This document shows, piece after piece, positions 7,701 through 25,018 of a stretch of DNA of 27,469 nt. How positions within the stretch are numbered: the first letter of the stretch is position 1; the number at the start of each line of letters is the position of its first letter. This stretch comes from Abditibacteriaceae bacterium (GTDB taxonomy: Bacteria > Armatimonadota > Abditibacteriia > Abditibacteriales > Abditibacteriaceae), in contig JANPJS010000106.1 in NCBI GenBank assembly GCA_031425655.1, forward strand, positions 1-27,469. Reading direction: 5' to 3'. The notes below the pieces were generated by a model that had not been told where the DNA came from, ran no database searches, and saw only the letters and a list, made by a program, of their open reading frames with translations. The translations under genes and the position numbers were made by a program.

Positions 7701-8326
7701 AGGTTGCGCACACGGCGTCCCTGCGCTTCTTCGATGACGACGGTCGCCTTGCCGTCGAGCGGCTGGTTGTAATCGAAAGCGATTTGCAGGCGGCGGTCTG
7801 CGGCAGCGCGTTCAAATTCGGCGAGGCTAATGGGCTGCCAGTCGGTGGGATTCGAGGAGAGTCCGCCGTGCGCGGCCCGCGCGCTGCTTTGCAAAAAACT
7901 TTCGCGCTGGCGAGCTTGGCCGAACGGCCCGCCCTCCCAACTCACCTCGAAGCCGAGACGGAGCAGTTGCCATCCCGCTTCACTGTTCACCAACCATTCC
8001 GCAGGAACGCGGAACTCGTAACGGTCGGTGTTGCCGCTGCGCACGATGCGCATCGCGCGTGCGCCTTTGTTGCTCAGCCGCACCGTTTTATCGGCGGCTA
8101 AACCCACTTGCACCGTCGAGTCGCCCCCAGTCGGCGCGAAGGACTCGACCGCAACTGTCAGCGTCAAGGTGTCATTATCGCGGCTCAGAGTGTAAGCCAC
8201 GCGCGGCGAAGCTGGGCCGGAAACTACCACCAAGCCATCGTCCGGAGCCGTTTGGCCTCGCGCCGCTCCGGTGCAGGTTACAGTGAACGCCAGCGTAATC
8301 AAGGCCCGTCGAAAATGAATGTTCAT
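4745..8326 (-). CDS. Large secreted protein: FlgD Ig-like domain, NHL/beta-propeller region, C-terminal CBM9-like sugar-binding domain
   Basis: Signal peptide after ATG 8326; GRRVRNL..IVWDGRDDQGRAMPPGNYRW (FlgD_ig); FYVSDAEAHVVQVLD (NHL); PPIIDGRSDDW..AAHDGKMLYL..YVVEIAVPLAELG (CBM9-like). Confidence 0.75.
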   Translation of the reverse strand: MNIHFRRALITLAFTVTCTGAARGQTAPDDGLVVVSGPASPRVAYTLSRDNDTLTLTVAVESFAPTGGDSTVQVGLAADKTVRLSNKGARAMRIVRSGNTDRYEFRVPAEWLVNSEAGWQLLRLGFEVSWEGGPFGQARQRESFLQSSARAAHGGLSSNPTDWQPISLAEFERAAADRRLQIAFDYNQPLDGKATVVIEEAQGRRVRNLISGRAMAKGTQRIVWDGRDDQGRAMPPGNYRWRAIAHPGLKPNYLFSYANGPGSNHGTLHAATTNGASLFFGTSVSEGGYELVQLAQDGTFQRGFNAPHGHGLGRVAVAADEKFLYAAYDGTAWGQSTDRSKPDWKVENQISLVRFDLATGNLSDFSRTARFATLRRYVVGPGSPDKRPDRLALAGLAFLNGRLYLADGGSNEVLDIDPATGAIARSFSLENSVALTSGNGLLYAIAGGQLLQIAPATGQSKAIASLTGQPAGLAIGDGKFYVSDAEAHVVQVLDERGKIIGTVGKPGGIAPGAYDPLRLHNPAGLVLAPDGHLWVTENNRWQPKRLAAYDPRTPAMWKEFFGPAAYGAPGAGFDPLDATRWIGQNTLFQLDFAAKTAKPLAIMGGEDGAHYRFWRQDGRTFLITYGKAIFIQELRADGTTRPLACLSSAHQFSYSRDWRPPAAFVEAFNRDYPAQKYVVAVPGRPNHGFGMLWVDKNGDAAMQAEEIEFATAADSLAGSGWGHDFNDLTLRVAATVGGKGALVTLRPNGWWPGGAPRYPALNDAVKASVPVDLPAGSNSAESTVDRFGNLLLNADPTMRAFSPDGKLLWTYPNQWSGVHGSHKAPLPSPGELQGVLFFTGVAPLDDRADVVVMNGNHGRAFVMTTDGLYLDEMFSDVRLMTNPQAGGVGILGGECFGGTFGRSEKDGNYYFQGGGIEYRLYRVDGLRQTTRAGGPLVVTPQQAIAAERNSARTLAAEAPARRTRIAFRATPPIIDGRSDDWTGEAEVQWDRNGQFPVAVRAAHDGKMLYLHYTVRGDASPWVNNGKDWQQLFKTGDGVDLQLGTNVAANPARSGPVAGDLRLFVAPFAGQSSAILYRHRLPGAADSVVFQSPWRSEKVDSVKKLETARVAVTRGGDSYVVEIAVPLAELGLNALSAKPLRGDFGVIYGDAAGTVNIFRNYWANPATGLVNDVPGEIILTPNLWGDVVFEEVTP

Positions 8327-8744
8327 AAGAATAATCAAACCCAAGAGGTCTAATATCTCCTAAATTTATGGTCTTAATAGAGATTTTCGATAGCTGAAAC
8401 CAAATAGGCGCTCGTGCCTCGCTCCGCTCAGAATGACAGCGCCTTTTAAAACCAAAAATCTTTAGTTAAGGAATTCTAAAGCATCTCTCGACCGCCTACA
8501 ATTTCGACTACGGTTGTCTGAATTTCATCCCGGTTCTTTACTTTGCGCGGCCTTCGGATTCCTACAGGTTTGCTCTTGGGCCGTGTGGCCCGCGTTTGAA
8601 AAGAAGCAGCGTTGGAAAGAGCCAGACGACTTCATTCTGGCCAAGAACTATAAGATAACCCAGATTGCTCCCTTCGCAGCCGCGATTTCAATCGGCGGCA
8701 ACTTGGATTACACAGGTAGACAACTATTTATGAGGAACAACACC

Positions 8745-10016
8745 ATGAAAACACGCATTTTCCCCGCCGTCGCACTCACGCTCGTGCTTACGGGCGCCGC
8801 ATTTTCCCATGCAGCGCAAGCCGCTCCGCTGCCGCCGAACGCCCGCGTCGCCATCATCGGCGATTCGATTACGGAACAAAAGCAATATTCCAAATTTATG
8901 GACGCCTACCTGCTCGCCTGCACGGGCCGCACCGACATCAAATGCTTTCAGTTCGGCTGGAGCGGCGAAACCGCCGGCGGTTTTAAGCAGCGCATGGAAA
9001 ACGACCTTAGCGTGTTTCGTCCCAACGTGGCGACGTTTTGCTACGGCATGAACGACGGTGGTTACCAGCCCTACAACGAAAATATCGGCAAAGGCTATGA
9101 AGCCAATATGCGCGCCGTGCTGCTGAAAGCGAAGGAGATGGGCGTAACGACCATCGTCGCCGGCACGCCCGGAGCGGTAGACACCACATATTTTCGCAGA
9201 GCCACCCCCACGCCCGACCAATACAACGACACGCTGGCGCGTCTTGGCGCCATTGATAAAAAGCTCTCCGAAGAACTCCAAACTGGCTTCGCGGACGTGC
9301 ATGGCGAGATGATCAATGCGATGGCGAAAGCCAAAGCCGTGCTCGGCACCGATTATGATGTCGGTGGCCGCGACGGCGTGCATCCGGGAGCCAACGGCCA
9401 ACTGCTGATGGCGGCGGCGTTTCTTAAAGGCTTAGGCGTGGACGGCAACATCGGCGAAATCAGCGTAGATATAAAAGGTCAGGGCGCTGCGAGCGCGGGC
9501 CACCGCATCACGGGCGCTAACGGCACCGTGGAAGTGGAAAGCACGAAATGGCCATTCTGCTTCGAGGGCGACGCAAAATCCTCCGGCGGCACGCGCAGCA
9601 TTGTTCCCTTCACCGACTTCAACGAAAAACTTAACCGCCTGACGTTGCGGGTGAAAAATCTGGATGCCGCCAAAGCAAAAGTGACGTGGGGCACCGAGAG
9701 CAAAGAGTTCACGAAAGAGCAGCTTACTCAAGGCATCAACCTCGCCGCCGAGTTCACCAAAACGCCGTTCGATGGCGCTTTCAAGACGTTCATGGATGCC
9801 ATCGGGGCCAAGCAGAATTACGAAACGACGATGATTAAAGGCGTCATCACGAACTTCCGTAGCCTCACCAACGATGCCAAAGAAGACGCCGAATTCGCGG
9901 CGGCGCTGAACACCCTGAAGACGAAGATGCTCGCCAAACAAGAAAGTCTCGATGCCGCCGCGCGCAAACTGCTCGTGCCGGTGAAGCATTCGCTCAAAGT
10001 CGAAGCTGCCCAGTAA
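8745..10016 (+). CDS. Secreted SGNH/GDSL hydrolase (esterase) family protein
   Basis: IIGDSIT (block I), GWSGET, YGMNDG and DGVHP catalytic motifs; GAGGA ribosome-binding site at 8732-8736 and a signal peptide after ATG 8745. Confidence 0.88.
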   Translation: MKTRIFPAVALTLVLTGAAFSHAAQAAPLPPNARVAIIGDSITEQKQYSKFMDAYLLACTGRTDIKCFQFGWSGETAGGFKQRMENDLSVFRPNVATFCYGMNDGGYQPYNENIGKGYEANMRAVLLKAKEMGVTTIVAGTPGAVDTTYFRRATPTPDQYNDTLARLGAIDKKLSEELQTGFADVHGEMINAMAKAKAVLGTDYDVGGRDGVHPGANGQLLMAAAFLKGLGVDGNIGEISVDIKGQGAASAGHRITGANGTVEVESTKWPFCFEGDAKSSGGTRSIVPFTDFNEKLNRLTLRVKNLDAAKAKVTWGTESKEFTKEQLTQGINLAAEFTKTPFDGAFKTFMDAIGAKQNYETTMIKGVITNFRSLTNDAKEDAEFAAALNTLKTKMLAKQESLDAAARKLLVPVKHSLKVEAAQ

Positions 10017-10038
10017 AAACTGGCAAACAGGCAAATCC

Positions 10039-13000
10039 ATGAACCTCATACCCAAAACGCCCTTCGTCGCGGCGCTGGGAGCCGCTTTGTCTCTTGCTTC
10101 GCCGTCAAATGCGACAGAAACCGAAAACCACGGCTTGCGCGTTTTGCCCGCGCCCGGCGCGGTGGCGATGGATGGGCAAATCGGCGATTGGGATTTGAGC
10201 GCCGGCATTTTTGCCTGCGGGCAGTTGGAGCAGTTGCGCGAACGCAGCGCGTTGTGGTTTCACGCAATGCACGACAGCGAAAACCTGTATCTGCTGGCGC
10301 GCTGGAAAGATGAAACGCCGCTCAACAACCCGGAATCGCAGGGCGGGCACAGCTTCAACGGCGATTGCCTTCAGTTTCGCTGCATCCTCTTCCCAGACAC
10401 GCCCGACGAAACCGTCACATGGTGGAATGCGTGGCGCGATAACAAAGGAATATCTATCGTGGATCGCAGTTGGCCCGGCAAAACCAACGGCGTAAGCAGC
10501 AATCCCCTGCCCGATTTGGCAAACGCCGTAGGTCAAGGCGTTAAGCAGAGTTTTCGCGTAGATGAAGGCGCAAAAGGCTACGTGCAGGAAATCGCCGTGC
10601 CGTGGAAGATGCTCAGCCTCGCCGGACGCGCGCCCAAAATCGGCGAGCGGTTTCGCTTCACTATCGAGCCGAATTTCACCGCCGGAGCCTACGGGCGCAT
10701 CACGATCAAGGATATTTTCGACGACAAAGTGGCCGCGCCTGACCGCGTCTTTACGTTTCGCGCCTACAAACACTGGGGCTGGGCCACGCTTTCGCCGACC
10801 GGCAAAGCCCTGCCGCAACCGGTGCGAGTGGCCGATGGCCGCACCTTTCCGGTGGCGCTGCCGGGCGGCATTCCGGCAGTGACGTGGAACGGTTTGGAAC
10901 GGCGGTTCGAGTGGCCGGGCTTCAAGCCAATTTCGTTCAATATGCCGTTCGAGGGCACCGTTTCGCTGAATCTGCTCAACGAAAAAGGCAGCGTCGTGCG
11001 CCATCTGCTCAACGAAACCCGGCGTTCGGCGGGGCCGGTGACAGTGCGGTGGGACGGCCTCACCGACGCCACTTATCGCACGCCGGGACATCCTGTAGCG
11101 GCGGGCAATTATACGTGGAAAGCCATCGCGCACCCCGGCGCCACGCTGGCGCTGCGCGGCTACGCCGGGTTCAGCGGCGCCGCACCCTGGCAGGCCACGC
11201 CGCAGGATTTCTGGCTGGGCGATCACGGCGCGCCCAGCGACGCGGAAACCGACGGCACACGCATGTATTTAGCCTGCAACGGCGCTGAAGGCGGGCGCCA
11301 TCTGATCGCTACCGACTTCGACGGCAAGCTGATTTGGAGCCTGCAAAACACTACTGGCGCCGCCGACCCCAACGACATCGCAGTGGACGGCGGCACCATT
11401 TTCGTGCTGCATCCCAAAGCGTCGTGGATGAAAAACACCACGCTAATTAGTCGCGTGGACGCCAAAACCGGCGCCTATCAAAAGTGGCCCGGCCTGAAAA
11501 ATCACATTCTCAGCCCGACGGATGCCTTTGGCGCCGAAGCCGTGAAATCCGGCCTCGACCACCTTGATTCCTTCGACGCGCATGGCGGCCTGATCTACGG
11601 CACCATCGGCGGCACCACCATCTACAACGAGGATATAGATTGGCCGGAGCTGCTGGCCAAAGTGAAGGCCGACACAGCGCTCTCGGCGAAAGTTTTTGCC
11701 GATGTCGCGCCCGAACGTCTTGCCGGCATCGAGCGTTTTTTTGCGAGCCAAGAAAAGAATGCCAACCAGCAGCAGAGCGAGGTCATGAGCCGAATCCGCG
11801 ACAATCTCAACGATTTGTTGCTGACCACAGATATGGCGCCCGGCGTTGCAAAGATGCAAAGTGCGCAACGCGTTCTGGCCAACCGCCGCCTGCTGGAAGA
11901 ACGCCTCGCGCTGCGCCGCGTGGAGCATTGGATCGTGGTGCTGGATGGGCAGAGCGGCGCTCTAAAAAAACGCTGGCCCTTGCCGCTGGCGGGCGCCATC
12001 AAGGTGCGGGACGAGAAAACTGCTTATGTTGTAAGCGGCGACGACGTGCTGGCTCTGAACCTCGAAAGCGGCGCCGCCAAGCCGTTTATCAGCGGACTCA
12101 CCGCGCCGCGTGCGCTGGCGATTGACACGCAGGGCCGCGTCTTAGTGAGTTTGGGCGCCGATCATCAGGTTGCGGTTTTCAGCGCCGCCGGCAAAGAACT
12201 GGGCCGCGTTGGCGTTAAAGGCGGGCGTCAGATTGGCCCGTGGCAGCCGGATCGTATGTTAAATCCGCACGGCATCGCAGTGGATGCGCAGGGCAAGCTG
12301 TGGGTCATGGAAGACGATCATTCGCCCAAGCGTGTGAGCGTCTGGGCGCTGGGGGAATCCGTGAAAACTGCTCCCCTCGTGCGCGAGTTCTTCGGCCCCA
12401 CGCACTACGGCGCATCGGGTGGCGCAATCAATCCACGCGACCCCAACCTGATGATCGGCGAGGGCTGCGAGTGGCGCATTGACCCCAACGGCGGTCAAGC
12501 GGCGTGCGTGGGAACTTTTCATCGCGCGGAGGGCGGCGATTCCGGCATCCATAATTTCGCCACGTTCCGCGAAGGCACCAACGGCAGGCTCTATCTTTTC
12601 ACCAATCAGATGCGCTATGGCACCGGCAGCATTCAAATCTGGGAGCGTCTTGGTGATGCGCGTTACGCGCTGCGGGCCGCACTGCGTAACGATGTCAAAG
12701 GCGCTGACTCGAACAGCGGCGCGACGGAATTGTGGACGGACTTAAACGGCGACGGGCAGGAGCAAGCCGGGGAAATTCAGCGGCGTAGCGGCGCGCTTTA
12801 TTGCGCCGGCAGCAACAGTTGGTCGCTTAACCTCGGCCCCGATTTCACGCTCTACGGCCTTGATGCTCAGGACAAAAAACTGAAAGCACTGACGCTCTCC
12901 AAGTTCGCCGCCAACGGCGCGCCGCAATATGACCTGGCGAACTTGAAAACTCTGCCCAATGCTCTCAGCGACGGCTACGAGCGCAACAACAGTTGCGCTC

Positions 13001-14265
13001 TGCCCGACGCCGACAACCGCAGTATTCTGGTGAATCTGCGCGTGAAAGACCATCCGGCGGGGATGCTGTGGCATTGCTTCGACCTTGCCACCGGCAAACT
13101 GCGCTGGACGTATCCTAACCCATATTTTCAAGTGCATGGCTCGCACAAAGCCCCGGCGCCGGAACCGGGCCTCTTTCGCGGCGCTTACGGCCCGATTGGC
13201 GCCGCAAAGCTGGCCGGCGTCGGCAATTTCTGGACGATCAACGGCAATCTCGGCGAATGGTGGGTGCTGAACTCTGACGGTTTTTACGTCACGCGCCTTT
13301 TCAACGGCAGCCCTTTCGAGTGGAACTGGCCGACCACGCCCGCGCCCAGCACTGACATGACGAACCTGCCGGCGGGCAGCGGCAGCGAGGATTTTGGCGG
13401 CAGCGTAACGCAGGCCAAAGACGGCAAGGTTTATATTCAGTCGGGCAAAGTCGCCAACTGGAACATCGTGCTGAGCGGCTTGGAAAAAACCGTCGCTCTG
13501 CCCGGCGGCGCGCTGACGATCAGCGAAGCTGAAACGCGGCAGGCGTTGGCGCTGCGCGAAAAAGCGATGCAGGCGGCTGCGAATCCAAAACTCACCATCA
13601 AAAAAGCCACCATCACGTTCAGCGGCAACATCAATCAGGATTTTCGCGGTCAAACGAGCGTTTCGTATCAGAAACTTGAGGATGCCGCCGTTACCACCGC
13701 GCTGGCCTATGATGACAGCAAGCTCTACATCGGCTGGCAGGTCAAAGACGCTACACCGTGGGTCAACGGCGCTACTGACATCGCGCAGATGTATGCCACC
13801 GGCGACAGCGTTGATCTTCAACTTGGCACGGATACCGACGCCCGGCGCAGCGCCGCCGCAAAAGGCGATTTACGCCTTTCAATTGGCAATTTACAAGGCA
13901 AGCCGACGGCGGTGCTTTATCGCTTCGTGAGCGAAGAAAAAAAACCGCGTGCCTTCAGTTCGGGCGTCGTTCAGGGCTGGCAGGTGGACTGGGTTGACGT
14001 GCTGGCCGAAGCCGAAATCAAGGTAAAAATCGAAGCCGGTAAAGGCTACGTCGTGGAAGCCGCCGTGCCGTTGGCCGCGCTGGGAGTCAAAGCCGCGCCG
14101 GGTCTGCGGCTGCGCGGCGATGTCGGCGTGACGCACGGCGATTCGGCAGGCGTTCGCACGCGCCTGCGCACCCATTGGGCCAACCAGACGACGGGCCTCG
14201 TGGACGACGTGGTTTTTGAGCTGCAACCCGCTCCGCAAAACTGGGGCGAAATTGCCTTTGAGTAA
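10039..14265 (+). CDS. Very large secreted protein: N-terminal CBM9-like domain, FlgD Ig-like domain, NHL/beta-propeller, C-terminal CBM9-like domain; paralog of 4745-8326
   Basis: 1408-aa ORF with signal peptide; MDGQIGDW..HDSENLYL; VVRHLL..VRWDGL..AGNYTW; NPHGIAVDAQGKLWVME; C-terminal AYDDSKLYIGW..YVVEAAVPL. Confidence 0.75.
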   Translation: MNLIPKTPFVAALGAALSLASPSNATETENHGLRVLPAPGAVAMDGQIGDWDLSAGIFACGQLEQLRERSALWFHAMHDSENLYLLARWKDETPLNNPESQGGHSFNGDCLQFRCILFPDTPDETVTWWNAWRDNKGISIVDRSWPGKTNGVSSNPLPDLANAVGQGVKQSFRVDEGAKGYVQEIAVPWKMLSLAGRAPKIGERFRFTIEPNFTAGAYGRITIKDIFDDKVAAPDRVFTFRAYKHWGWATLSPTGKALPQPVRVADGRTFPVALPGGIPAVTWNGLERRFEWPGFKPISFNMPFEGTVSLNLLNEKGSVVRHLLNETRRSAGPVTVRWDGLTDATYRTPGHPVAAGNYTWKAIAHPGATLALRGYAGFSGAAPWQATPQDFWLGDHGAPSDAETDGTRMYLACNGAEGGRHLIATDFDGKLIWSLQNTTGAADPNDIAVDGGTIFVLHPKASWMKNTTLISRVDAKTGAYQKWPGLKNHILSPTDAFGAEAVKSGLDHLDSFDAHGGLIYGTIGGTTIYNEDIDWPELLAKVKADTALSAKVFADVAPERLAGIERFFASQEKNANQQQSEVMSRIRDNLNDLLLTTDMAPGVAKMQSAQRVLANRRLLEERLALRRVEHWIVVLDGQSGALKKRWPLPLAGAIKVRDEKTAYVVSGDDVLALNLESGAAKPFISGLTAPRALAIDTQGRVLVSLGADHQVAVFSAAGKELGRVGVKGGRQIGPWQPDRMLNPHGIAVDAQGKLWVMEDDHSPKRVSVWALGESVKTAPLVREFFGPTHYGASGGAINPRDPNLMIGEGCEWRIDPNGGQAACVGTFHRAEGGDSGIHNFATFREGTNGRLYLFTNQMRYGTGSIQIWERLGDARYALRAALRNDVKGADSNSGATELWTDLNGDGQEQAGEIQRRSGALYCAGSNSWSLNLGPDFTLYGLDAQDKKLKALTLSKFAANGAPQYDLANLKTLPNALSDGYERNNSCALPDADNRSILVNLRVKDHPAGMLWHCFDLATGKLRWTYPNPYFQVHGSHKAPAPEPGLFRGAYGPIGAAKLAGVGNFWTINGNLGEWWVLNSDGFYVTRLFNGSPFEWNWPTTPAPSTDMTNLPAGSGSEDFGGSVTQAKDGKVYIQSGKVANWNIVLSGLEKTVALPGGALTISEAETRQALALREKAMQAAANPKLTIKKATITFSGNINQDFRGQTSVSYQKLEDAAVTTALAYDDSKLYIGWQVKDATPWVNGATDIAQMYATGDSVDLQLGTDTDARRSAAAKGDLRLSIGNLQGKPTAVLYRFVSEEKKPRAFSSGVVQGWQVDWVDVLAEAEIKVKIEAGKGYVVEAAVPLAALGVKAAPGLRLRGDVGVTHGDSAGVRTRLRTHWANQTTGLVDDVVFELQPAPQNWGEIAFE

Positions 14266-15074: not shown

Positions 15075-15327
15075 AGTTTGAATATCCTCGAATAAATCCG
15101 TGAAGGCGAGGTCTGGTTTTCTTACCCATAATGGCAAGGCTCTCAGCATCCGCGCATACCGAGCGCTCAAACATGTGCAACTCGCCACCTCGTTGATCTG
15201 ACGACTGTCGAATGTTTGTTATTAAGCGCCAATTCTGGCCTGCCCCTCCGAATATATTTTTGCTCCGGTTAATCTCGGCATCGCCATGAAAATATCTTCT
15301 CGCAACGGTTGCTCCGGCTTCCATCAA

Positions 15328-16650
15328 ATGAAAATCAGTCGCCGCGAGGCGTTGCGCATCGGTTTCTGTGGCGCGCTCGGTTTAAGTATGTCGGACTTGC
15401 TTCGTCACGAAGCGCACGCGGCAACGCTACCCGGCACTTTTAAGGAAGGCAAAGCCAAGAGCGTCATTCATTTGCACCTGCCGGGCGGCATGGCACAACA
15501 GGAGTCGTGGGATCCGAAACCGGAAGCACCATCGGAATATCGCGGCGCGTTCGGCGTGGCGAAAACCAATACCGGCGAGATTTTCAGCGATAATTTTACG
15601 CGCACGGCCAAAGTCGCCGACAAAATAACCGTCGTGCGCTCCGTTGTGGGCAAGATTCCCGACCATTCGCAGGCGACTTATCATCTTTTCACCGGCTATA
15701 CGCCGACGACCGTGATTGATTACCCGCAAATGGGCGCCGTCGTTTCGCACCTGCTGGGCACGCGCAAAGGCTTGCCGCCTTATGTCGCCGTGCCCAACTC
15801 GAATGCCTTCGCGGGCGGCACCGGCTTTCTGAGCAGCAAATACGGCGCGTTTCAACTCAACGCCGACCCCGGAGGGCGCGGCGCGTTCAAAGTGCGCGAC
15901 TTCAACATCCCGGCGGGCGTATCGCCGGAGCAATTCGAGCGGCGCAAAACGGCGCGGGCCATCGTGGAAAATCACCTGCGCCAACTCGACGCGAATACCG
16001 ACACGCTGAACACGATGGACGAATTCCAACGCAGCGCGCATTCCCTTCTGACAAGCGACGAAGCGCGCCGGGCCTTTTCGCTGGAAGGCGAAAGTGACGC
16101 CATGCGCGAGCTTTACGGGCGCGGCTACACGCTCAAACAAAACGCGCCCGCCGCCGTGGGCGAGAGGCTGCTCTTGGCGCGTCGCATGGTGGAAGCCGGC
16201 GTGCGCTTTGTGACTGTGAATTACGGTTCGTGGGATTCGCACGTCGGCATTAAAGATACTTGCAACGAGCATATGCCGGCGCTCGATCACGCGATTAGCG
16301 GTCTGATTACCGACCTCGATCAACGTGGGATGCTCGACAGCACCTTAGTGATGGTCACCACGGAGTTTGGCCGCACGCCAAAAGTCAACAAAGATAATGG
16401 GCGCGATCACTGGGCGCGGGTTTATTCGATGATGTTAGCCGGCGGCGGCATCACGCGCGGCCAGATTTATGGCGCCTCCGACGCCACCTCCGCTGAACCC
16501 GCGAGCGACGCCGTGATGCTGGAAGATTTCCTTTGCACCGTTTATCACCAGCTTGGTATTGACTCCAACGAAGAACTGATGGCCTTTGGCGGCACGCGCC
16601 CGATTGAAATCGTGAAAGACGGCAAAGTTGTCAAAGCGATTGTTGCCTGA
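15328..16650 (+). CDS. DUF1501 domain-containing protein, Tat-exported
   Basis: SRREAL twin-arginine signal; AKSVIHLHLPGGMAQQESWDPKP, LLARRMVEAGVRFV, WDSH, EFGRTPKVN..GRDHW, LAGGGI. Confidence 0.9.
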   Translation: MKISRREALRIGFCGALGLSMSDLLRHEAHAATLPGTFKEGKAKSVIHLHLPGGMAQQESWDPKPEAPSEYRGAFGVAKTNTGEIFSDNFTRTAKVADKITVVRSVVGKIPDHSQATYHLFTGYTPTTVIDYPQMGAVVSHLLGTRKGLPPYVAVPNSNAFAGGTGFLSSKYGAFQLNADPGGRGAFKVRDFNIPAGVSPEQFERRKTARAIVENHLRQLDANTDTLNTMDEFQRSAHSLLTSDEARRAFSLEGESDAMRELYGRGYTLKQNAPAAVGERLLLARRMVEAGVRFVTVNYGSWDSHVGIKDTCNEHMPALDHAISGLITDLDQRGMLDSTLVMVTTEFGRTPKVNKDNGRDHWARVYSMMLAGGGITRGQIYGASDATSAEPASDAVMLEDFLCTVYHQLGIDSNEELMAFGGTRPIEIVKDGKVVKAIVA

Positions 16651-16651
16651 T

Positions 16652-16758
16652 TTTATGGCAAAAAATGGACTGGCAAAAAATAGATTTAGTTGCTAATTTC
16701 TCGAAATCTATTGCCAGTTGCAAAGGCAATAATTTAGAAATCTATTTTTTGCCATAAA
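16652..16758. repeat. Intergenic palindromic element 1 (TGGCAAAAAAT family, long loop)
   Basis: Left arm ATGGCAAAAAATGGACTGGCAAAAAATAGATTT; perfect 17-bp inverted repeat 16671-16687/16738-16754; outer right unit degenerate. Confidence 0.85.
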
Positions 16759-16775
16759 TTATTTACCACCCAATC

Positions 16776-17561
16776 ATGCCCATTCACACGCCGGTAAAGA
16801 CGCGATGTTTGAGCCAAAGTGAATTCGGTGAAATTTCGTTTGAAGTAATGAAGCACATCTTTGCCATTCACGGCGAATTTGGTCGCCTGTTTGATGAGAA
16901 AATCTACAAACGCGAATTGGCTCGGCGAATGCCCGGTGTGCAACTTGAAGTTCCTGTTGATGTGACTTACGACAGTTTCGCCAAACGTTATTTTCTTGAT
17001 GTTCTTATCGGAGAAGGAGGACTTTTCGAGTTCAAGACGGTGGAAACGCTCAATGCTCGTCATCGAGCGCAGTTGGCTCATTACATGATGCTGCTAAAGA
17101 TCAAGCACGCCAAGTTGGTAAACATGAGGCCGGAAAAAGTGGCGCACGACTTTGTGAACTTGTCGCGCACTTTATCGGAGTTGCGCCAACCCCTGATAGA
17201 AAAGCGTGATTGGGATCGGGCAATTCCCGGTGCCTTACAGTTTGAACAAACTCTACTTGCCCTTGTGGCTGACTGGGGAACCGGCCTCGAACTTCCTCTC
17301 TACATTGAGGCGTTGACCCATTTTCTCGGAGGAGAATCCGAGGCCTGTCAAGACGTTTTGGTGCTAAATGGCGACTACGAATTAGGAGTGCAAAACCTAC
17401 GCTTGGCTGCGCCTAACGTGGCATTCAAATTAACGGCACTGTCTAACAATTTCGCAGCCCACCTTGTTCAAACTCGGAAGCTGTTGGCCTACACCAGCCT
17501 CAAAGCCATGCTTTGGGCAAATATCAATCATCAAGATGTTCATTTCACCTGCATTCGTTAA
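16776..17561 (+). CDS. GxxExxY protein (PD-(D/E)XK nuclease superfamily), double-length form
   Basis: IHGEFGRLFDEKIYKRELA, EVPVDVTY, FLDVLI..LFEFKTVE, HRAQLAHY, AKLVN; the second half repeats the pattern (WGTGLELPLYIEAL..LWANI). Confidence 0.8.
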   Translation: MPIHTPVKTRCLSQSEFGEISFEVMKHIFAIHGEFGRLFDEKIYKRELARRMPGVQLEVPVDVTYDSFAKRYFLDVLIGEGGLFEFKTVETLNARHRAQLAHYMMLLKIKHAKLVNMRPEKVAHDFVNLSRTLSELRQPLIEKRDWDRAIPGALQFEQTLLALVADWGTGLELPLYIEALTHFLGGESEACQDVLVLNGDYELGVQNLRLAAPNVAFKLTALSNNFAAHLVQTRKLLAYTSLKAMLWANINHQDVHFTCIR

Positions 17562-20025
17562 CAACATTGGCAAAAAATGGGATGGCAAAAAATGGTTTTT
17601 ATTTTTTGCCCTCCCATTTTTTGCCATCATAGCCCAAGCCGGGCCGATGGTGCATCACATCGAATACGTCACGCCACGCGCGGGCCAACGCGGCACCACG
17701 GTAGAAGTGTTGTTGGAAGGCGCTTATCTCAAAGAGCCGCGCGAAATTCTCTTTTTTCGGCCCGGTATCAAGTGCGTCGAAGTGAAAGCTTTGCCGTCGC
17801 TGACCTCGCGGCGCGGTATGGCTCATAGCGGTTTTATCGAGGACAACGTGCGCTGTCGTTTTGAAATCGCGCCCGATTGTCCACTCGGTTTGCACCCCTT
17901 CAAGCTACGCACGGCTACCGAGTTGACCATGATAAGCACCTTCGCCGTCACCGCATTTCCGAACGTGGACGAAGGCGAAGACAAGCAGGGCAGCGACGAT
18001 TCGCCAGCAACGGCTAAGGAAATTTCGCTCAATACGACGGTGCGAGGCCGCATGGACAGCGCGCAAATAGCCGATGTGGATTTGTATCGCGTGAGCGGGA
18101 AAGCAGGCCAGCATCTTTCGGTCGAAGTGGATTCCGTCTGGCTGACCGAAAAGTTTTACGGCGGCTCCGAATTCGATTTAGTAGCGCGTTTGCTGGATGC
18201 CGAAGGCCGCGAACTGGCGCGAAACGACGACAGCGCGCTGCATTTGCAAGACCCCATTGTTTCCACGTTGCTGCCGCGCGACGGCGATTACTTCGTCGAG
18301 GTGAAACAGCGCGTTTTTAATCGCGGCAGCAACTGTTATTATCTGGCGCACATCGGCACGAATTCGCGCCCACTGGCCGCTTATCCGGCAGGTGGCCCAG
18401 CCGGAAAACCGCTGCAAACCACGCTGCTTGGCGATCCGGCGGGAGCGATGCCAAAAACCATCGCATTGCCCGCCAGCGCAGGCGATTTCGCATTTCTTGA
18501 CGATATGCCTTCGCCTCTGCCGCTGCGCGTGAGCAACTACGACAATGTGCTGGAAGCGGGCGACGAAACACCCGTAAAAACTCTGCCCGCTGCGCTCAAC
18601 GGCATCATCGAACAAGCGGGCGATGAGGATACTTTTCGCATCAGCGCGAAAAAAGGCGAACGCTGGTGCGTGCGCGTTTTTGCACGTTCATTGGGCACGC
18701 CACTCGATCCGCGCCTCGCTATTCGCCGCGCCGGGGAAGAAACCATTGAAATCGAAGGCGACGACGCCTCGCTCGAAGCGCGTGGTTTGTATGGCATGGC
18801 GGGCCAGATTCAGCGCAAGGAAAAAATGGATCCCTCGCTGGTTTGGGAGCCAAAAACCGACGGCGATTACACGCTAACCATCTCTGATATGCGCGGACTT
18901 GGCGATGCGCTTTCGGTTTATCGCGTCGAAATCGAGCCGGTGCGCGATGAAATCAACACCTTCCTCTTCGCGTCGGTCATTGACAGCGTGGAATGTCCGC
19001 GTCTCACCAGCATCGCTGTTCCACAGGGCAATCGTTGGAACGTAAGCGTCAAACTTTCCGAAGGTCAGGGCAATCGTTATAAAGGCGAACTCGAACTGGT
19101 AGCCGACGGCCTGCCCAAAGGCGTAACGATGATCGCGCCGCGCATCGCGGCGGGCGCCAAGCAAACGCAAGTGCAATTCGTCGCCGAGGCCGATACGCCA
19201 CCGCAAGTCGCGCTGATAACTCTGCAATGCAAAGCCGTGGACGGCACACCAGTTGTCAGTCGCTCGCAGCAGGGTTTTCCATTTCTCAACCACTCCGGCG
19301 GGCACGCCTGGCATTCGTTCGTGGTTGACAAATATGCGCTCGCCGTCACCGAAGCGGCGCCGTTTACCTTCGATTTGGCGCAGCCGCAGCTTTCGCTTTC
19401 GCAGAACGGCGAATTGTCTTTACCCGTGAAAGTCACGCGCCGGCCCGGTTTCGACGAAGCGCTGGAATTTCAGTGCGACTGGCTGCCGCCCGGCGTGCAA
19501 AGCGAGCCAACGGTAACGATTCCCGCCGGGCAATCTACAGGCATGATGCGCATTACCGCCGATTCGGGCGCGCGGCCCGCAAAATGGCAACTCGCCGTTA
19601 CTGCTTCCACGACCGGCGGCTCCTATTATCTCGGCGCCGGGCGCATGCGCTGCGCCACGAATTTCGTTGATCTCGTTATCGCCGAGCCTTATGTCGTGCT
19701 GAAAAATAATCCGACTGCCGTGCGGCGCGGCGGCAAAGCCGAGGTGGTGTGGGATGTCGAAAACAAAAAACCCTTCGAGGGCGAAGCGCGGGCCATTCTT
19801 CTCGGTTTGCCCAAAGGCGTCAGCGTAGTCGGCGCCCCAAAACTCAAAGCCGGCGACGCGAAATTGACATTTGAAATCACCGCCACCGATGAAGCGTTGT
19901 TGGGCCAATACAAAGAATTGACTTGCGAAATCGTCGTAAAGGAACGCGGTCAGGAAATCCGTCAGCGCAGCGGCAAAGGCATTCTGCGCGTAGACCCGGC
20001 GCTGGTTAAAACGACCAAAAGCTGA
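17536..20025 (+). CDS. Secreted PPC (pre-peptidase C-terminal) domain-containing protein of the DUF1501/DUF1549 operon
   Basis: P.AGQRGTTVEV, DVDLYRVSGKAGQHLSVEV, ELARNDDS..DP, LPAALNGIIEQAGDEDTF, ARSLGTPLDP. Start uncertain: ATG 17536 gives a signal peptide, ATG 17647 does not. Confidence 0.8.
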   Translation: MFISPAFVNNIGKKWDGKKWFLFFALPFFAIIAQAGPMVHHIEYVTPRAGQRGTTVEVLLEGAYLKEPREILFFRPGIKCVEVKALPSLTSRRGMAHSGFIEDNVRCRFEIAPDCPLGLHPFKLRTATELTMISTFAVTAFPNVDEGEDKQGSDDSPATAKEISLNTTVRGRMDSAQIADVDLYRVSGKAGQHLSVEVDSVWLTEKFYGGSEFDLVARLLDAEGRELARNDDSALHLQDPIVSTLLPRDGDYFVEVKQRVFNRGSNCYYLAHIGTNSRPLAAYPAGGPAGKPLQTTLLGDPAGAMPKTIALPASAGDFAFLDDMPSPLPLRVSNYDNVLEAGDETPVKTLPAALNGIIEQAGDEDTFRISAKKGERWCVRVFARSLGTPLDPRLAIRRAGEETIEIEGDDASLEARGLYGMAGQIQRKEKMDPSLVWEPKTDGDYTLTISDMRGLGDALSVYRVEIEPVRDEINTFLFASVIDSVECPRLTSIAVPQGNRWNVSVKLSEGQGNRYKGELELVADGLPKGVTMIAPRIAAGAKQTQVQFVAEADTPPQVALITLQCKAVDGTPVVSRSQQGFPFLNHSGGHAWHSFVVDKYALAVTEAAPFTFDLAQPQLSLSQNGELSLPVKVTRRPGFDEALEFQCDWLPPGVQSEPTVTIPAGQSTGMMRITADSGARPAKWQLAVTASTTGGSYYLGAGRMRCATNFVDLVIAEPYVVLKNNPTAVRRGGKAEVVWDVENKKPFEGEARAILLGLPKGVSVVGAPKLKAGDAKLTFEITATDEALLGQYKELTCEIVVKERGQEIRQRSGKGILRVDPALVKTTKS
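17568..17626. repeat. Intergenic palindromic element 2 (short loop)
   Basis: 26-bp arms 17568-17593 and 17601-17626, complementary at 25/26, 7-nt loop. Confidence 0.9.
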
Positions 20026-20140
20026 ATGGCAAAAAATTGTTGGGCAAAAAATGATAGTCAGATAAATTCAGACAAATAATAGTGGACTGAGGTTAAACCG
20101 CATTTACAGACCATTTTTTGCCCAACAATTTTTTGCCATT
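20025..20140. repeat. Intergenic palindromic element 3 (long loop)
   Basis: Perfect 29-bp inverted repeat AATGGCAAAAAATTGTTGGGCAAAAAATG at 20025-20053/20112-20140, 58-bp loop. Confidence 0.92.
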
Positions 20141-20150
20141 TAAATTACAA

Positions 20151-22385
20151 ATGAAGCCGAACATGAATCATAAAATTTGGTATTTATGCGTTTTTGCGAT
20201 CCTGCTCTGGCTGCCACGCGCCGCGTTCGCCGCCGATGCGCCACAAGCTCCCAGTTTTCGCCGCGATGTGATGCCGGTTTTTTTGCGCGCCGGCTGCAAT
20301 CAGGGCACATGTCACGGTGCGGCGCGCGGCAAAGACGGCTTCATGCTCTCGCTTTTCGGCTACGATGCCAAAGGCGACTATTATCGCATCACGCAGGAAC
20401 AAATTGGGCGGCGCCTCAATCTCGCGGTGCCCGAAGAAAGTCTGCTGCTGCTCAAAGCCACCGGCAAAGTGCCGCACACCGGCGGCGAGTTGTTCACCAA
20501 AGATACCGCGTATTACAAAACGCTGCTGCGCTGGATCGAAGCCGGCGCGCTGGACGACGATCAAGCTGTGGCAATGCCGGTCGAAATCACTTTGACGCCT
20601 GATAATATGCTTTTCCAGAGCGGCAAAGGCACGCAGCAGTTGAAAGTGAACGCACGCTATTCGGATGGCACAACGCGCGATGTCACCGACCTCGCGCTTT
20701 TTGCGACGAACAATCCCAGCACGGCCAAAATCAGCAAAACCGGCATGGTAACCGTCACCGGACGCGGCGACACCTTTGTTTTCGCGCGTTTTAATCGCTT
20801 CACTGTCGGCGCCGAAGTTATCGTGTTGGCACCGGACAAAGGTTACAAATGGACGAATCCGCCGGTGCAGAATTCTCTGGACGCCGTTGTCTACGACCGC
20901 TTGCAAAAACTACGGCTTTTACCTTCGGATTTATGCGATGACGAAACGTTTTTGCGCCGCGCCAATCTTGACCTTACCGGCAACTTGCCAAGCGTGGCCG
21001 AATATCGCGCGTTCGTGGCCGATACCAACCCGAAAAAACGCAGCGCGCTTGTGGATCAGCTCATCAAAAGCGATGCTTTCACCGACTTGTGGACGGATTT
21101 ATGGGCTGAAATGCTGCGTGTCAAAGGCGGCGGCTACGCGCCCACTGCCACCGACACCAAAGCGGCGGAGGCTTATTACGACTGGATTCACGAACAAATG
21201 GCGAAAAATCGCCCGCTCAACGAATTCGTGGCCGATCAAATCACTGGAACCGGCAGCAATCTCACCAACGGCCCGGCTAATCTTTACACCATGCTGGTGC
21301 ATGACGTGAGATTTACGCCGAAAAACTTCGCCGCCGATGCCTCGCAGCTTTTCACCGGCGTGCGTATTCAATGCGCCGAGTGCCACAATCACCCCTCCGA
21401 CCGCTGGACACAGGACGATTATTACGGCTGGGTTAGTTTTTTCACCGGAATTCAGCGCAAACTCGGCTCGGAACCGCGCGAATTTTACATTTACAACGAT
21501 CCGTCGGCACCGCCCGCCAAGCACGCCGTAGACGACCGCCCAATGCCGCCCACTGTTTTGGGTGGCGAAGCGCCGGTGCCTAAAAGCAACGACCCGCGCA
21601 AGGCCTTAGCCGCGTGGCTGACTTCGCCGAAAAACGAGCTTTTTTCTCGCAATCTGGCTAATCGTATCTGGGCGCATCATATGGGGCGCGGCCTTATTGA
21701 GCCGCTCGACGACATCCGCGTCAGCAACCCTCCCACCAATAAAGCGCTGCTGGATGCTCTGGCGGCGCGCTTAGCCAAAAACAACTTCGACTTGCGTGAT
21801 TTAGTCCGCGAAATTTGTAATTCGCGCGTTTATCAATTGTCGGCGAAGCCCAACGCCACGAATGCAAGCGATAATCGCCAATTTTCGCGTTCGCAACTGC
21901 GCCGAATGCGCGCCGATGTGTTGCTTGATGCTATCGTGAAGGCTACTAACAGCGAGCGGAACTTCAATTATTTCCCCAAAGGCATCAAAGCGATTCAGCA
22001 ATATCCGCGCTCGGACGGCGACACCAACAGCCCGCATACCGGCGACTCATTTTTCACGATTTTCGGACGCGCCGGACGCGCCAGCGTAAATGTGGACGAC
22101 ACCAAAATGGAGCCGACGCTTTCGCAAACGCTGCATTTTATCGCCGGAGAAACGGTGCAAAACCAAATCAACGGCGGGCAAGTCGTTCCCAAACTCCTCG
22201 CCGCCAACACACCACCCGAAGCGATTATCGAGGAACTTTATATTCGCGCCCTGTCGCGGAAACCCGCAGTTGGCGAACTTAAAGCGATGCTCGAACTTGT
22301 CGGCACCAACCCGCGCGACCGCAAAGCCTACGAGGACATCTTTTTCGGCCTGCTCAACTCAACCGAGTTTCTTTTCAATCACTGA
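20151..22385 (+). CDS. DUF1549/DUF1553 (PSD1-type) protein with Ig-like domain and heme-binding motifs
   Basis: SFRRDVMPVF.RAGCNQGTCHG, DDETFLRRA.LDLTG.LP, IQCAECHNHP.DRWTQDDYY, NRIWAHHMGRGLIEP.DD, LLNSTEFLFNH; start 20151 or 20163. Confidence 0.88.
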   Translation: MKPNMNHKIWYLCVFAILLWLPRAAFAADAPQAPSFRRDVMPVFLRAGCNQGTCHGAARGKDGFMLSLFGYDAKGDYYRITQEQIGRRLNLAVPEESLLLLKATGKVPHTGGELFTKDTAYYKTLLRWIEAGALDDDQAVAMPVEITLTPDNMLFQSGKGTQQLKVNARYSDGTTRDVTDLALFATNNPSTAKISKTGMVTVTGRGDTFVFARFNRFTVGAEVIVLAPDKGYKWTNPPVQNSLDAVVYDRLQKLRLLPSDLCDDETFLRRANLDLTGNLPSVAEYRAFVADTNPKKRSALVDQLIKSDAFTDLWTDLWAEMLRVKGGGYAPTATDTKAAEAYYDWIHEQMAKNRPLNEFVADQITGTGSNLTNGPANLYTMLVHDVRFTPKNFAADASQLFTGVRIQCAECHNHPSDRWTQDDYYGWVSFFTGIQRKLGSEPREFYIYNDPSAPPAKHAVDDRPMPPTVLGGEAPVPKSNDPRKALAAWLTSPKNELFSRNLANRIWAHHMGRGLIEPLDDIRVSNPPTNKALLDALAARLAKNNFDLRDLVREICNSRVYQLSAKPNATNASDNRQFSRSQLRRMRADVLLDAIVKATNSERNFNYFPKGIKAIQQYPRSDGDTNSPHTGDSFFTIFGRAGRASVNVDDTKMEPTLSQTLHFIAGETVQNQINGGQVVPKLLAANTPPEAIIEELYIRALSRKPAVGELKAMLELVGTNPRDRKAYEDIFFGLLNSTEFLFNH

Positions 22386-22509
22386 CTTTGGCAAAAAATG
22401 GGATGGCAAAAAATGGTTTTTGGAGCATTTGCGACTCACTTTTCTGATAAATCCTACATACATTCAACTCTAAGCCATTTTTTGCCATCCCATTTTTTGC
22501 CAAAGTCAG
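22382..22509. repeat. Intergenic palindromic element 4 (long loop)
   Basis: Perfect 35-bp inverted repeat CTGACTTTGGCAAAAAATGGGATGGCAAAAAATGG at 22382-22416/22475-22509, 58-bp loop; includes the upstream TGA. Confidence 0.93.
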
Positions 22510-22528
22510 CATACACATCATCACGTCC

Positions 22529-23893
22529 ATGAAATTCATTTTTGCTTCGTTGTTTTTCGCCGCGTGTGCCGTTTCCGCCGCCGAGCCTGTCGTCACTTAC
22601 GACGAGCATATCAAGCCGATTTTTCGTGAACATTGCCTGAAATGTCACGGTGACGACACGCAGAAGGCCGGTTTCAATTTTTCGACTTACGAAGCCGTGC
22701 TCAAAGGCGGCAACGGCGGCCCGGCTGTGGTGGCCGGACGCGCCAGCACCAGTTTGGTATTTCAGGCCATCACATCCGAAGACGACGCCGTGCGAATGCC
22801 GCCCAACAAACCGCCGATTCCAGCGGCACAAACGGAACTGATTCGCGCATGGATTCAAAGCGGCCTGCGCGAAAATGCCGGGGGCAAGTCACTGGCCGGT
22901 GAACGGGACATCGGTTTCAAACCCACCGCTGCCAAACTCGACGGCCCGCCGCCGGTGCCGGAAAACTGGCCAGCTTACACTGCGCCGCCAACGCGCCGCT
23001 CTTTGCCCATCGTGGCGATGGCATCCAGCCCCGTCGCGCCGGTTTTGGCTGTGGCCGGCTACGCGCAAGTGCGCTTCGTGGATTTGAACACCCAGCAACC
23101 GCTCGGCGCGCTGCCGTTTCCCGAAGGCCAACCCAATGTCATTCGCTTCAGTCAGGATGGCCGCGTGCTGATGGTGGCGGGCGGCAAGCCGGTGCAATCC
23201 GGCAGCGTGGTGCTTTACGATGTGAAAAGCGGCAAGCGACTGACTGCCGTGGGCGATGAAACCGACGCAGTGCTGGCCGCCGATCTTAGCCCCGATCAGA
23301 AACTCATCGCATTGGGCGGCTCCGGCAAAATCGTGAAGGTTTATGGCACCGAAGACGGCAAACTGCGCTACAAACTCACCAAGCACACCGAATGGATCAC
23401 TTCCGTCGCTTTCAGTCCCGATGGCAAGGTGCTGGCAAGCGCCGACCGCGCCGGCGGCATTCATCTCTGGGACAGCGCCAGCGGCGGCATTTTACTGACG
23501 TTGGCCGAACACAAAGCCGCCGTGCGCGCTCTGGCGTGGCGCGCTGACAACCGAATGCTCGCCAGTGGCGGCGAAGATGGTCAACTTATCTGGTGGGACG
23601 CCAAGGACGGCTGGCCCGCCATTCTCAAGAACAACGCGCATCCTCCCGCGCGTCCGGCGGGAGTTTTCGGCAAGATTCCCAACGGCGTGTTGTCACTCGC
23701 TTTTGGCCCGTCGGGCGAGCTTCTCAGCACGGGCCGCGATTATCAGGTGCGTCTGTGGAACGCCGAAGGCCGCGCCGTGAAATCTTTCGCAAGTGCGGCC
23801 TCGCTACCCCTTCAATCCGCGATTCGCAACGATGGCAAAACCTTAGTCGCCGGTGACGCCGCTGGAGAATTACGCTACTGGCCCGTGCCGTGA
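22529..23893 (+). CDS. Planctomycete-type cytochrome c domain plus WD40-repeat protein
   Basis: Signal peptide; [18 protein letters not shown] (CxxCH), RMPP, LIRAWI; WD repeats such as [30 protein letters not shown]. Confidence 0.88.
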
Positions 23894-23894
23894 A

Positions 23895-23953
23895 TGGCAA
23901 AAAATTGAATGGCAAAAAATGAAATTTTATTTTTTGCCCAACATTTTTTGCCA
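23895..23953. repeat. Intergenic palindromic element 5 (short loop)
   Basis: TGGCAAAAAATTGAATGGCAAAAAAT (23895-23920) and ATTTTTTGCCCAACATTTTTTGCCA (23929-23953), 8-nt loop. Confidence 0.88.
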
Positions 23954-23962
23954 AGAGAATCT

Positions 23963-24904
23963 ATGAAACGCTCTATGAGTCGCCGCACTTTTCTTTCTCA
24001 AGCCGCCGCCGTTGTCGCCTCGCCCGCTTTGGCGCAAACCGCGCCGACGTTGCGCGTGGTAGACGCGCACACGCATTTTTACGACCCGACACGCCCCGAA
24101 GGCGTGCCGTGGCCGGGCAAAGGCACGCCGCTTTACCGTCGCGTTCTACCTAAAGACTGGCTCGCCGTCGCCGCGCCGCACGGCGCCCACGAAACTATAG
24201 CTGTGGAGGCCAGCGCGTGGCTGGAAGACAATCAATGGATTCTCGATGTCGCTGCCGTCAACAAATCCATTGTCGGCTTCGTCGGGCATCTGCTGCCGCA
24301 CGAAACGGACTTTGCAAAGCATTTGAAACGCTTCGCCCCCAACCCGATTTTTCGTGGCATCCGCGTCAGCGGCAACGATTTTCTTGAAAACGTGGACAAA
24401 GCGGAGTTTCACAGCGGCGTAAAATTAATGGCCGATTTGGGTCTTACGCTCGACATCAACGGCGCGCCGTCCCTGCATCAGCATTCGGCAAAGCTGGCCG
24501 CCGCAGTTCCCGAATTGCGCATCGTGATCAATCACGTCGGCATTGCCGGCGATGCCGCGCATCTCAGCGACAAATGGCGGAGCGGCATGAAAGCGCTCGG
24601 CGCACAGAAGAACGTCTTTTGCAAAGTCTCAGCGCTGATGGAGCAAACCGACGCCTCCAACAAAGGCCCCGCCTTCGCCCCGCGCGATACGGCCTATTAC
24701 AAGCCCATCCTCGATCAGTGTTGGAATTGCTTCGGCGAAGACCGCCTCATCTACGGCAGCAACTGGCCAGTGTGCGAAAAAGCCGGCTCCTACGCCGATC
24801 AATTCAAAATTGTCAGCGAATACTTCAGCGCTAAAGGTCGCACGGCAAGCGAAAAGTATTTTTTGAAAAACTCGCTAACGGCCTACCGTCAGTTGCCCCA
24901 ATAA
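23963..24904 (+). CDS. Tat-exported amidohydrolase family protein (Amidohydro_2, sugar lactonase-like)
   Basis: SRRTFL Tat signal; VDAHTHFYDP, FRGIR, VINHVG, NVFCKVS, FGEDRLIYGSNWPV. Confidence 0.88.
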   Translation: MKRSMSRRTFLSQAAAVVASPALAQTAPTLRVVDAHTHFYDPTRPEGVPWPGKGTPLYRRVLPKDWLAVAAPHGAHETIAVEASAWLEDNQWILDVAAVNKSIVGFVGHLLPHETDFAKHLKRFAPNPIFRGIRVSGNDFLENVDKAEFHSGVKLMADLGLTLDINGAPSLHQHSAKLAAAVPELRIVINHVGIAGDAAHLSDKWRSGMKALGAQKNVFCKVSALMEQTDASNKGPAFAPRDTAYYKPILDQCWNCFGEDRLIYGSNWPVCEKAGSYADQFKIVSEYFSAKGRTASEKYFLKNSLTAYRQLPQ

Positions 24905-25018
24905 CTGCGAAGAAGGAACATAAACATACCGAAGCAAAAACGAATCAACCTTTTGTGCAATATGGCTTCCCGTTCTTTCCGTCTTCCCGCTTAAAACGGC
25001 CAGACCGCGTAAGAGGAG

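Follow-up and report, generated by a model that had tools for sequence, protein, structure and literature searches.

Why should a single bacterial operon carry a palindrome directly behind each of five consecutive stop codons, and what part is played by the one nuclease-like gene that lies between the first two of them? The question is raised by a 27,469-nucleotide (nt) stretch of DNA from an Abditibacteriaceae bacterium (assembly GCA_031425655.1, contig JANPJS010000106.1), referred to here as the window, in which an earlier note had singled out a gene of the GxxExxY family and five palindromic elements as a candidate mobile system. Here, we find that the observation is real and part of a wide class of which we found no description. 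GxxExxY genes and the arms that bracket them move as cassettes among operon junctions, and protein clades are paired with repeat units of their own. We suggest, with about an even chance of being right, that the cassette is a selfish, junction-colonizing element that resembles REPIN/RAYT systems (doublets of repetitive extragenic palindromes [REPs] and REP-associated tyrosine transposases [RAYTs]) and that would be driven at the DNA level by a Cas4/RecB-type PD-(D/E)XK nuclease. The cassette and the elements of the window are as follows:

16776..17561, plus strand: double-domain GxxExxY gene, 261 amino acids (aa)
16656..16754, no strand: element 1, palindrome of GGCAAAAAAT units, left flank of the cassette, 5 nt past the DUF1501 stop codon (16650)
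17568..17626, no strand: element 2, right flank of the cassette, 6 nt past the stop codon at 17561, in frame with the PPC gene
20027..20138, no strand: element 3, bare palindrome at the PPC to PSCyt2/PSD1 junction, 1 nt past the stop codon at 20025
22389..22502, no strand: element 4, bare palindrome at the PSD1 to WD40 junction, 3 nt past the stop codon at 22385
23895..23953, no strand: element 5, bare palindrome at the WD40 to amidohydrolase junction, 1 nt past the stop codon at 23893

All five elements lie where the earlier note had placed them, 1 to 6 nt after five consecutive stop codons, and as hairpins they fold far better than shuffled sequences (z from -4.7 to -11.7; 0 of 200 shuffles equal). 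The description of the arms as two tandem units is correct in general, but the right arm of element 1 is a single unit and the spacer in the right arm of element 5 is 3 nt. The motif is limited to these junctions inside the window but not in the genome, which contains 28 elements. The arms of element 3 are complementary over 29 nt at 100%, and the stem of element 4 reaches outward across the host stop codon (22382-22509; 38 nt, 97% complementary). The reverse complement of this stop codon sits at the far end of the stem, and the extension hints at in-place templating of the right arm. An assembly artefact is ruled out by homologous layouts in other genomes. Contigs of run X1, which is possibly the window's own source, match elements 1, 2, 3, and 5 exactly, and none of the X1 contigs listed spans element 4. 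Among the 15 joints listed of 22 from four DNA contig runs, in which rare variants are lost, there was no excision joint at an element.

Gene and repeat travel together

Several lines of evidence support the association of the gene with the repeat. First, 77 of 80 loci have a related doublet no more than 200 nt away from the gene, and 60 of them have one on both sides, compared to 140 of 2736 control windows (5.1%); after collapsing shared sites, the repeat lies within 200 nt at 42 of 45 sites and on both sides at 32. Second, 18 divergent members (29-37% identity; one from locus L090, the other 17 from an even sampling of one phylum) bear related 11-nt units, and 13 of them pass a flank-similarity cut-off that is passed by 1.5% of 600 control open reading frames (ORFs); in the five below it, the arms are short or overlap the gene end. 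Third, across host phyla, the distribution of repeat variants agrees with the protein tree (46 changes vs. a shuffled mean of 67.5, with 0 of 200 shuffles as low), using a quick tree with 10 rows unlabelled and a few automatic labels wrong (L008 and L073). L062, whose gene has an internal stop codon, was excluded. Judged by sequence association, every protein clade has a 10-11-nt unit of its own, and in several phyla the gene lies between repeats of this one family.

The pattern extends to the short members of the family. In the genome of the window, G000, all nine GxxExxY genes have their own arms around them, and the arm patterns with complete counts match 16 to 179 places. Eight of the nine are short genes (on contigs C215, C45, C54, C228, C298, C143, C260, and C126), each with a different unit that also forms a genome-wide bare family, and the flank-similarity cut-off is passed by 25 of 30 short genes drawn from this genome and related ones; labels of short genes were set by eye. 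Element position is 0-12 nt past the stop codon in most measurable loci. Some arms are arranged as direct repeats or back to back, others stand alone, and arm mismatches have no coding-strand G-U preference (43 G:T vs. 66 A:C).

The cassette is mobile

The 78 loci examined for position represent 49 distinct sites with varied upstream genes. The earlier proposal that the gene and its flanking palindromes form one unit is borne out: arm(s), gene, and arm(s) occur together at many unrelated operon junctions. In eight of eight orthologous operons without the gene, one of them from the same genus, the junctions are tight and free of elements (L094 was omitted from this count). This disposes of the concern that gene-less operons might bear the same elements, and it also corrects the expectation that removal of the cassette would leave a junction like the others, as the natural empty state has no element whatever rather than a fusion of elements 1 and 2.

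Replacement at one site is documented at a DUF1501 junction, where host genes are 96-98% identical (dS 0.37-0.57) and cassette genes 62-71% identical (dS 1.2-2.5), with some of the latter 84-88% identical to genes at other sites; cassette genes at different sites are 82-90% identical. By these comparisons, this single junction has hosted several unrelated gene lineages by replacement. Alignment places the edges of one incoming cassette right after the host stop codon and just beyond the right arm. In L061, the old left element is retained and the gene plus right element are exchanged. In L090, a member with 32% identity sits one junction further on between arms of another variant, and this variant recurs without a gene at the junction that the window's gene occupies; in L172, an L090-type gene lies inside single arms and the first junction, the site of the window's gene, is empty. 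Three same-genus genomes carry a short-type cassette where the genome of the window has a bare stop-start overlap, with no visible duplication. Altogether, the cassette is gained, lost, and replaced at one site, and swap points are the arms or the gene start. Family profiles found no DDE, DEDD, serine, or HUH transposase in the element.

Junctions with similar arms also hold other genes. At C207:40362-40922 in G000, a small foreign ORF lies between two elements, with a direct duplication of ~55 bp (end of the upstream gene plus left arm), which suggests that such sites capture foreign genes; the relative L117 has a GxxExxY gene at the corresponding junction. At C262:140-430 in G000, a four-helix-bundle cassette lies just upstream of the start of a gene that we take to be guaA-like, and the relative L119 has a GxxExxY cassette there. 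L143 and L151, from two genomes, each have two different long GxxExxY genes at junctions a few kilobases apart, in or beside an ABC-transporter-like operon.

Bare elements and the miniature element that carries them

Elements 3 to 5 had been interpreted as empty or non-autonomous sites, and bare elements elsewhere agree with this. The 534 kb around 45 independent sites contain 44 bare arms (82 per Mb), and the reversed pattern has one match there; in five whole carrier genomes the density is 3-12 per Mb, which amounts to an enrichment near the gene of ~7-fold or more. The local variant is matched by 40 of the 44, with a shuffled expectation of 11.1. The motif is genome-wide, as had been feared for the proposal, yet it is enriched near the gene. 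The complete genome G065 repeats the layout of the window, with elements at three consecutive upstream junctions and one downstream. G061 has three long genes, three units, and bare copies of each; one of these units has 14 matches in G061 and 0, 0, 0, and 1 in four other genomes.

In G000, exact arms number 47 vs. 0 for the reversed pattern. Among the 28 elements, 19 lie within or at the end of a 183-bp miniature inverted-repeat transposable element (MITE) and nine lie outside, five in this operon and four elsewhere. The MITE has no ORF; inverted ends and a 3-bp TAA/TTA/TCA target duplication are present in 12 of 14 copies examined, and the copy at C143:39055-39237 exemplifies the single GGCAAAAAAT palindrome in its middle. 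Its ends are presumably IS5/IS1031-like. A search near 10 PF01609 matches found no autonomous partner in this assembly of 327 contigs, other transposase families not having been searched for. A related 150-bp element without the palindrome has an end at C108:25245. In 60 relatives, the exact doublet was limited to one bare element in a same-genus genome and one arm within an ORF. Because the five elements have no MITE ends and the gene is bracketed across phyla (MITE ends were not seen in the flanks inspected), the MITE most likely captured one palindrome and then spread most copies outside the operon secondarily. The MITE with its palindrome is, in this respect, a nested parasite.

The GxxExxY protein is a two-domain nuclease-fold protein

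The protein exceeds the cut-offs of both family models (PF13366, 55.7 bits vs. 22; TIGR04256, 53.5 vs. 35), and its gene has a GC content of 0.48 and a third-position GC content of 0.52, compared to 0.56-0.61 and 0.65-0.70 in four neighbouring genes. Both the family and the AT-richer composition claimed for the gene between elements 1 and 2 are confirmed. The PD-(D/E)XK assignment was also correct; the double-domain form had been overlooked. Homologs of similar length number 536, the named ones being from Verrucomicrobiota and Planctomycetota. In the structure model (predicted local distance difference test score 95), one helix/strand succession occurs twice. In the N-domain, G36, E41, D75, E85, K87, and Q99 are invariant in 98 of 98 homologs (near-duplicates counted), and the window protein also retains Y103. 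The D...ExK motif is intact on a restriction-endonuclease-like fold in the model, as predicted for a PD-(D/E)XK nuclease. The best fold match of the N-domain is Cas4 SSO0001, with a modest score (Z 7.5, root mean square deviation 2.1, 90 aligned), followed by matches that include AdnA (Z 6.9, also modest) and restriction enzymes. The protein is not a member of Cas4, which has Fe-S cysteines and a cas locus: there are no conserved cysteines among the invariant or nearly invariant columns and no cas genes among the 16 window proteins scanned. No solved structure related by sequence was found, and an Atlas search returned GxxExxY clusters and nothing else. The active site is conserved and under purifying selection, with a median ratio of nonsynonymous to synonymous substitution (dN/dS) of 0.13 over 22 pairs.

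The C-half resembles restriction enzymes in fold (Z 5-6), and the catalytic residues are missing. Compared with the short GxxExxY family, it aligns over 95 columns with E 0.0058 and a probability of 6%. The structure model, this alignment, and the fold matches are the basis for a duplication, whereas two other tests were weak or negative. Direct profile comparison of the N and C halves is not significant (E 0.36), and the hidden Markov model of the short family matches 5 of 98 C halves at E < 0.01, with 0.91 for the window's own and 4.6 as the best value of the reversed control. The C-domain is probably a degenerate, inactive copy and the protein a fused active/inactive pair.

A palindrome that may serve as a signal peptide

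Element 2 was correctly described as a palindrome; that it is in frame with the PPC gene and takes the place of the PPC N-terminus had been overlooked. The proposed feature is the following:

17536..17640, plus strand: proposed cassette-supplied start, inside the GxxExxY 3' end, and 35-aa signal-peptide-like PPC N-terminus (from orthologs and hydropathy)

The proposed N-terminus ends in AQA, after which the conserved GPMVHH begins. Element-free PPC orthologs (n = 7) have a signal-like peptide of 19-26 aa ahead of GPMVHH, of which the window PPC protein has lost all except the last residues. Instead, its frame crosses element 2 from an ATG in the GxxExxY 3' end, such that the A-rich arm encodes lysines and the T-rich arm a hydrophobic core, with a hydropathy similar to that of the orthologs. 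Element 2, therefore, appears to have replaced the signal-peptide region, as judged by eye from orthologs and hydropathy. Alternatively, translation of the PPC gene could begin at the GPM ATG, with loss of export. At 20 of the 80 loci, representing six distinct sites (one spurious frame was removed from 21), the downstream frame crosses the right element with a similar peptide and there is no ATG in the next 75 nt.

The host operon and its surroundings

The operon has the order DUF1501, PPC, PSCyt2/PSD1, PSCyt1-WD40, and amidohydrolase, and its genes are the following:

15286..16650, plus strand: DUF1501 gene
17641..20025, plus strand: PPC-domain protein, mature part
20151..22385, plus strand: PSCyt2/PSD1 (DUF1549/DUF1553) gene
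22529..23893, plus strand: PSCyt1 plus WD40 gene
23963..24904, plus strand: Amidohydrolase_2 gene with its own start downstream of element 5

The window has 0 Rfam matches, and promoter- and terminator-like sites are no more frequent than chance. A lone CGGGAAG-family arm, cognate to the short GxxExxY gene on C260, lies at ~24960-24995 between the converging amidohydrolase and MucB-like genes. Elsewhere in the window, an IS630-family element at 1523-2534 has 28-nt inverted ends and a transposase broken across several frames, and at 3021-14265 a GDSL hydrolase is flanked on both sides by large NHL-repeat proteins, two of them with FlgD-Ig domains.

How the cassette might spread

We suggest that the GxxExxY protein binds its own tandem units in DNA, as duplex or extruded hairpin, that the inactive C-domain probably aids recognition, and that the one active site nicks the DNA. 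The host would then repair the nick through strand invasion or a template switch from one arm to another, and in doing so copy the arms alone or the arms plus gene elsewhere. Bare palindromes would be by-products and landing pads alike, and action partly in cis would give rise to runs of elements along one operon. Copies would persist at junctions because the arms can give a stop codon to the upstream gene and a start and signal peptide to the downstream one. We favour action at the DNA level because there is no G-U preference, the best fold matches are DNA nucleases, and the stems are often coding. In a tentative extension, to which we give somewhat less than an even chance, GxxExxY proteins at large mobilize an undescribed class of elements with clade-specific palindromes, seeding at junctions, and transposase-free homing by nuclease-triggered recombination. 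The double-domain clade would be the version with one active site, and its right palindrome a portable start and signal peptide that overwrites the N-termini of secreted proteins.

Several findings weigh against a nuclease-driven cassette. Bare arms occur in the flanks of 15 of 45 sites and are absent from those of the other 30. Some repeats have no gene: an orphan family in G091, where no long gene was found, matches the pattern 28 times against 6 for the control, and no cognate gene was found for 11 GGCAGAATGAT-type arms in the complete genome G065. In a prophage-like cluster (L186; G061:C63:50000-63000), one junction after another holds a single arm, of two or three variants in all, and a GxxExxY gene is absent; the cluster is possibly a vehicle for arms. 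Co-occurrence across 151 genomes of the phylum gave no clear excess in 12 of 13 carriers, with a pattern that was too loose and missed divergent units. Flanking 16-mers of RAYT genes are highly repeated in the genome, according to the accessible text of PMC5581495; by this criterion, the counts for the window gene (3 and 5) are low, with fixed 170-nt flanks that are not strictly extragenic and a count of 5 on both sides reached by 10.5% of 800 control ORFs. This genome is, moreover, rich in repeats, with a repeated 16-mer in one flank of 49% of control ORFs. Physical linkage by itself would make protein and repeat vary together, so that this co-variation is evidence for a cassette, not for recognition. 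Non-nuclease four-helix-bundle genes are similarly bracketed, and the layout therefore needs no nuclease in cis. Finally, no target-site duplication is visible across filled and empty junctions, none of the pairs being near-identical, and no integrase chemistry is apparent.

The eight short GxxExxY genes have flanking 16-mer counts of 7-96 on both sides. The GGCAGAATGAT-type arms of G065 (e.g., L175-L182) sit in long non-coding repeated islands. The four-helix-bundle (PF05635) genes of G000 number seven (C74:24342, C253:9078, C193:18599, C54:18969, C92:12251, C262:140, and C26:13452); six have inverted 7-mer arrays on both sides, and the remaining one has an array upstream and a remnant in the gene tail. 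The most frequent 16-mer of the genome (228 copies) comes from one such array.

Alternative explanations

The gene might instead be a passenger or parasite of repeats that are spread by host recombination, slippage, or another enzyme (a RAYT or MITE transposase), entering or hopping via arm homology and kept for another benefit such as defence or repair. The orphan families and gene-less clusters speak for this explanation, ordinary recombination between arms could account for the cassette swaps, and four-helix-bundle genes and small foreign ORFs also lie between similar arms. IS110 elements that target REPs, as described in the accessible text of PMC12288879, are a precedent, and the long-form gene was found in none of the viral contigs or plasmids searched. 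We nevertheless regard this explanation as unlikely. The RAYT-like genes of this genome have different, classical flanks, and no other maker of these repeats was found; clades and units pair one-to-one for nine genes in one genome and for the three G061 paralogs; and the eight gene-less orthologous operons are element-less too.

An RNA-level system similar to intervening sequences (IVSs) would have the mRNA stems cut by RNase III or the GxxExxY protein, excising the message of the gene or dividing the transcript, with mobility or exact placement via RNA. The strong predicted RNA stems, their position mostly 0-12 nt past stop codons, and the way in which runs of elements follow one transcription unit are consistent with this. 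The gene-in-loop layout is like that of ORF-bearing rRNA IVSs cut by RNase III (accessible text of PMC4990558), four-helix-bundle (IVS protein) genes are laid out alike, and tRNA splicing endonucleases, which have the same fold, appear low in the fold lists. However, the coding strand shows no G-U bias, the best fold matches, at modest scores, are DNA nucleases, and some arms are direct repeats, back-to-back pairs, or solitary. In the 20 of 80 loci in which the stem encodes the N-terminus of the next protein, cleavage would destroy the message. We consider this explanation improbable as well.

That the five elements are eroded copies of the IS5-like MITE, with the gene adjacent by chance, would fit the 19 of 28 elements that belong to the MITE but is very improbable, since the five have neither MITE ends nor the 3-bp duplication and the cross-phylum bracketing of the gene largely refutes it.

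The preferred explanation, a junction-colonizing cassette driven by its own nuclease, bears on the origin of bacterial palindromic repeats that have no RAYT; here, an orphan nuclease family is tied to specific repeats. The wider proposal on GxxExxY proteins at large, if true, would provide this large family of orphan nucleases with a function and account for many of the repeat families in Planctomycetes-Verrucomicrobia-Chlamydiae (PVC) and related genomes. A second chemistry for REP-like spread and a repeat recoded as a signal peptide would have consequences for mobile-element biology and PVC annotation. Natural cognate and non-cognate pairs exist, three of them in G061, and a small sequence-specific nuclease could be of use. 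If the protein proves to be a passenger, it becomes REP-associated cargo.

Comparison with known systems

We found no description in the literature of repeats around GxxExxY genes, and supplements (e.g., of PMC3733652 and PMC6006769) could contain such a remark. In their accessible text, PMC3424549 lists PF13366 as of unknown function, the mention of GxxExxY in 10.1101/2021.01.26.428298 is incidental, PMC3936711 notes IVS-protein genes inside cas operons and does not mention repeats, and PMC4679880 deals with heptamer repeats only. We assign the cassette to no known class because the defining tests of those known families that could be tested failed and no description was found.

Among the closest known systems are the short (~125-aa) GxxExxY cassettes, which share the protein family, inverted arms of tandem units, operon junctions, and bare copies; the double-domain subfamily differs in its own 10-11-nt unit, colonization of a whole operon, supply of signal peptides, and capture by a MITE. 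Homing endonuclease genes, free-standing or of the PD-(D/E)XK type, are nuclease genes copied into empty sites, and the cassette likewise seems to reach empty sites as a copy made by recombination and to be exchanged for another at one site; however, it has no single conserved target gene, intron, or intein, and the shared sequence is its own repeat. Insertion sequence and MITE pairs (IS5/IS1031-like, or IS110 targeting REPs) also have autonomous and gene-less forms, and the 183-bp carrier of 19 elements in this genome is a MITE of that type. The cassette, however, has no DDE/DEDD transposase and no target duplication was seen; its paralogs in one genome differ from one another instead of being identical copies. 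ORF-bearing 23S rRNA IVSs (S23p, four-helix bundle) similarly have a small ORF in an inverted-repeat loop, and the four-helix-bundle genes of this genome have a cassette-like layout at operon junctions. By contrast, the cassette lies between protein genes in mRNA operons and not within an rRNA gene, its ORF has a nuclease fold and is under purifying selection, bare copies are genome-wide, and there is no coding-strand G-U bias.

REPIN/RAYT systems (REPtron, TnpA-REP) are the closest working analogue (accessible text of PMC5581495, PMC8266576, PMC3733652, and PMC6006769). In both, a nuclease gene of low copy number lies between palindromic doublets whose further copies are scattered through the extragenic space of the genome, enzyme clades and repeats are matched to one another (here by sequence association only), and selection is purifying; the cassette was not found on plasmids. 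Pfam gives PF13366 only on the window protein, with neither an HUH motif nor Y1_Tnp, and the genome's six Y1_Tnp matches are at other places and differently flanked. In contrast to RAYTs, which are HUH tyrosine transposases, the cassette enzyme is of the PD-(D/E)XK type (Cas4/RecB-like), and its arms are tandem 10-11-nt units without GTAG/CGTC tags. The cassette gene also often changes site, sits in tight operon junctions, and has arms that can turn coding.

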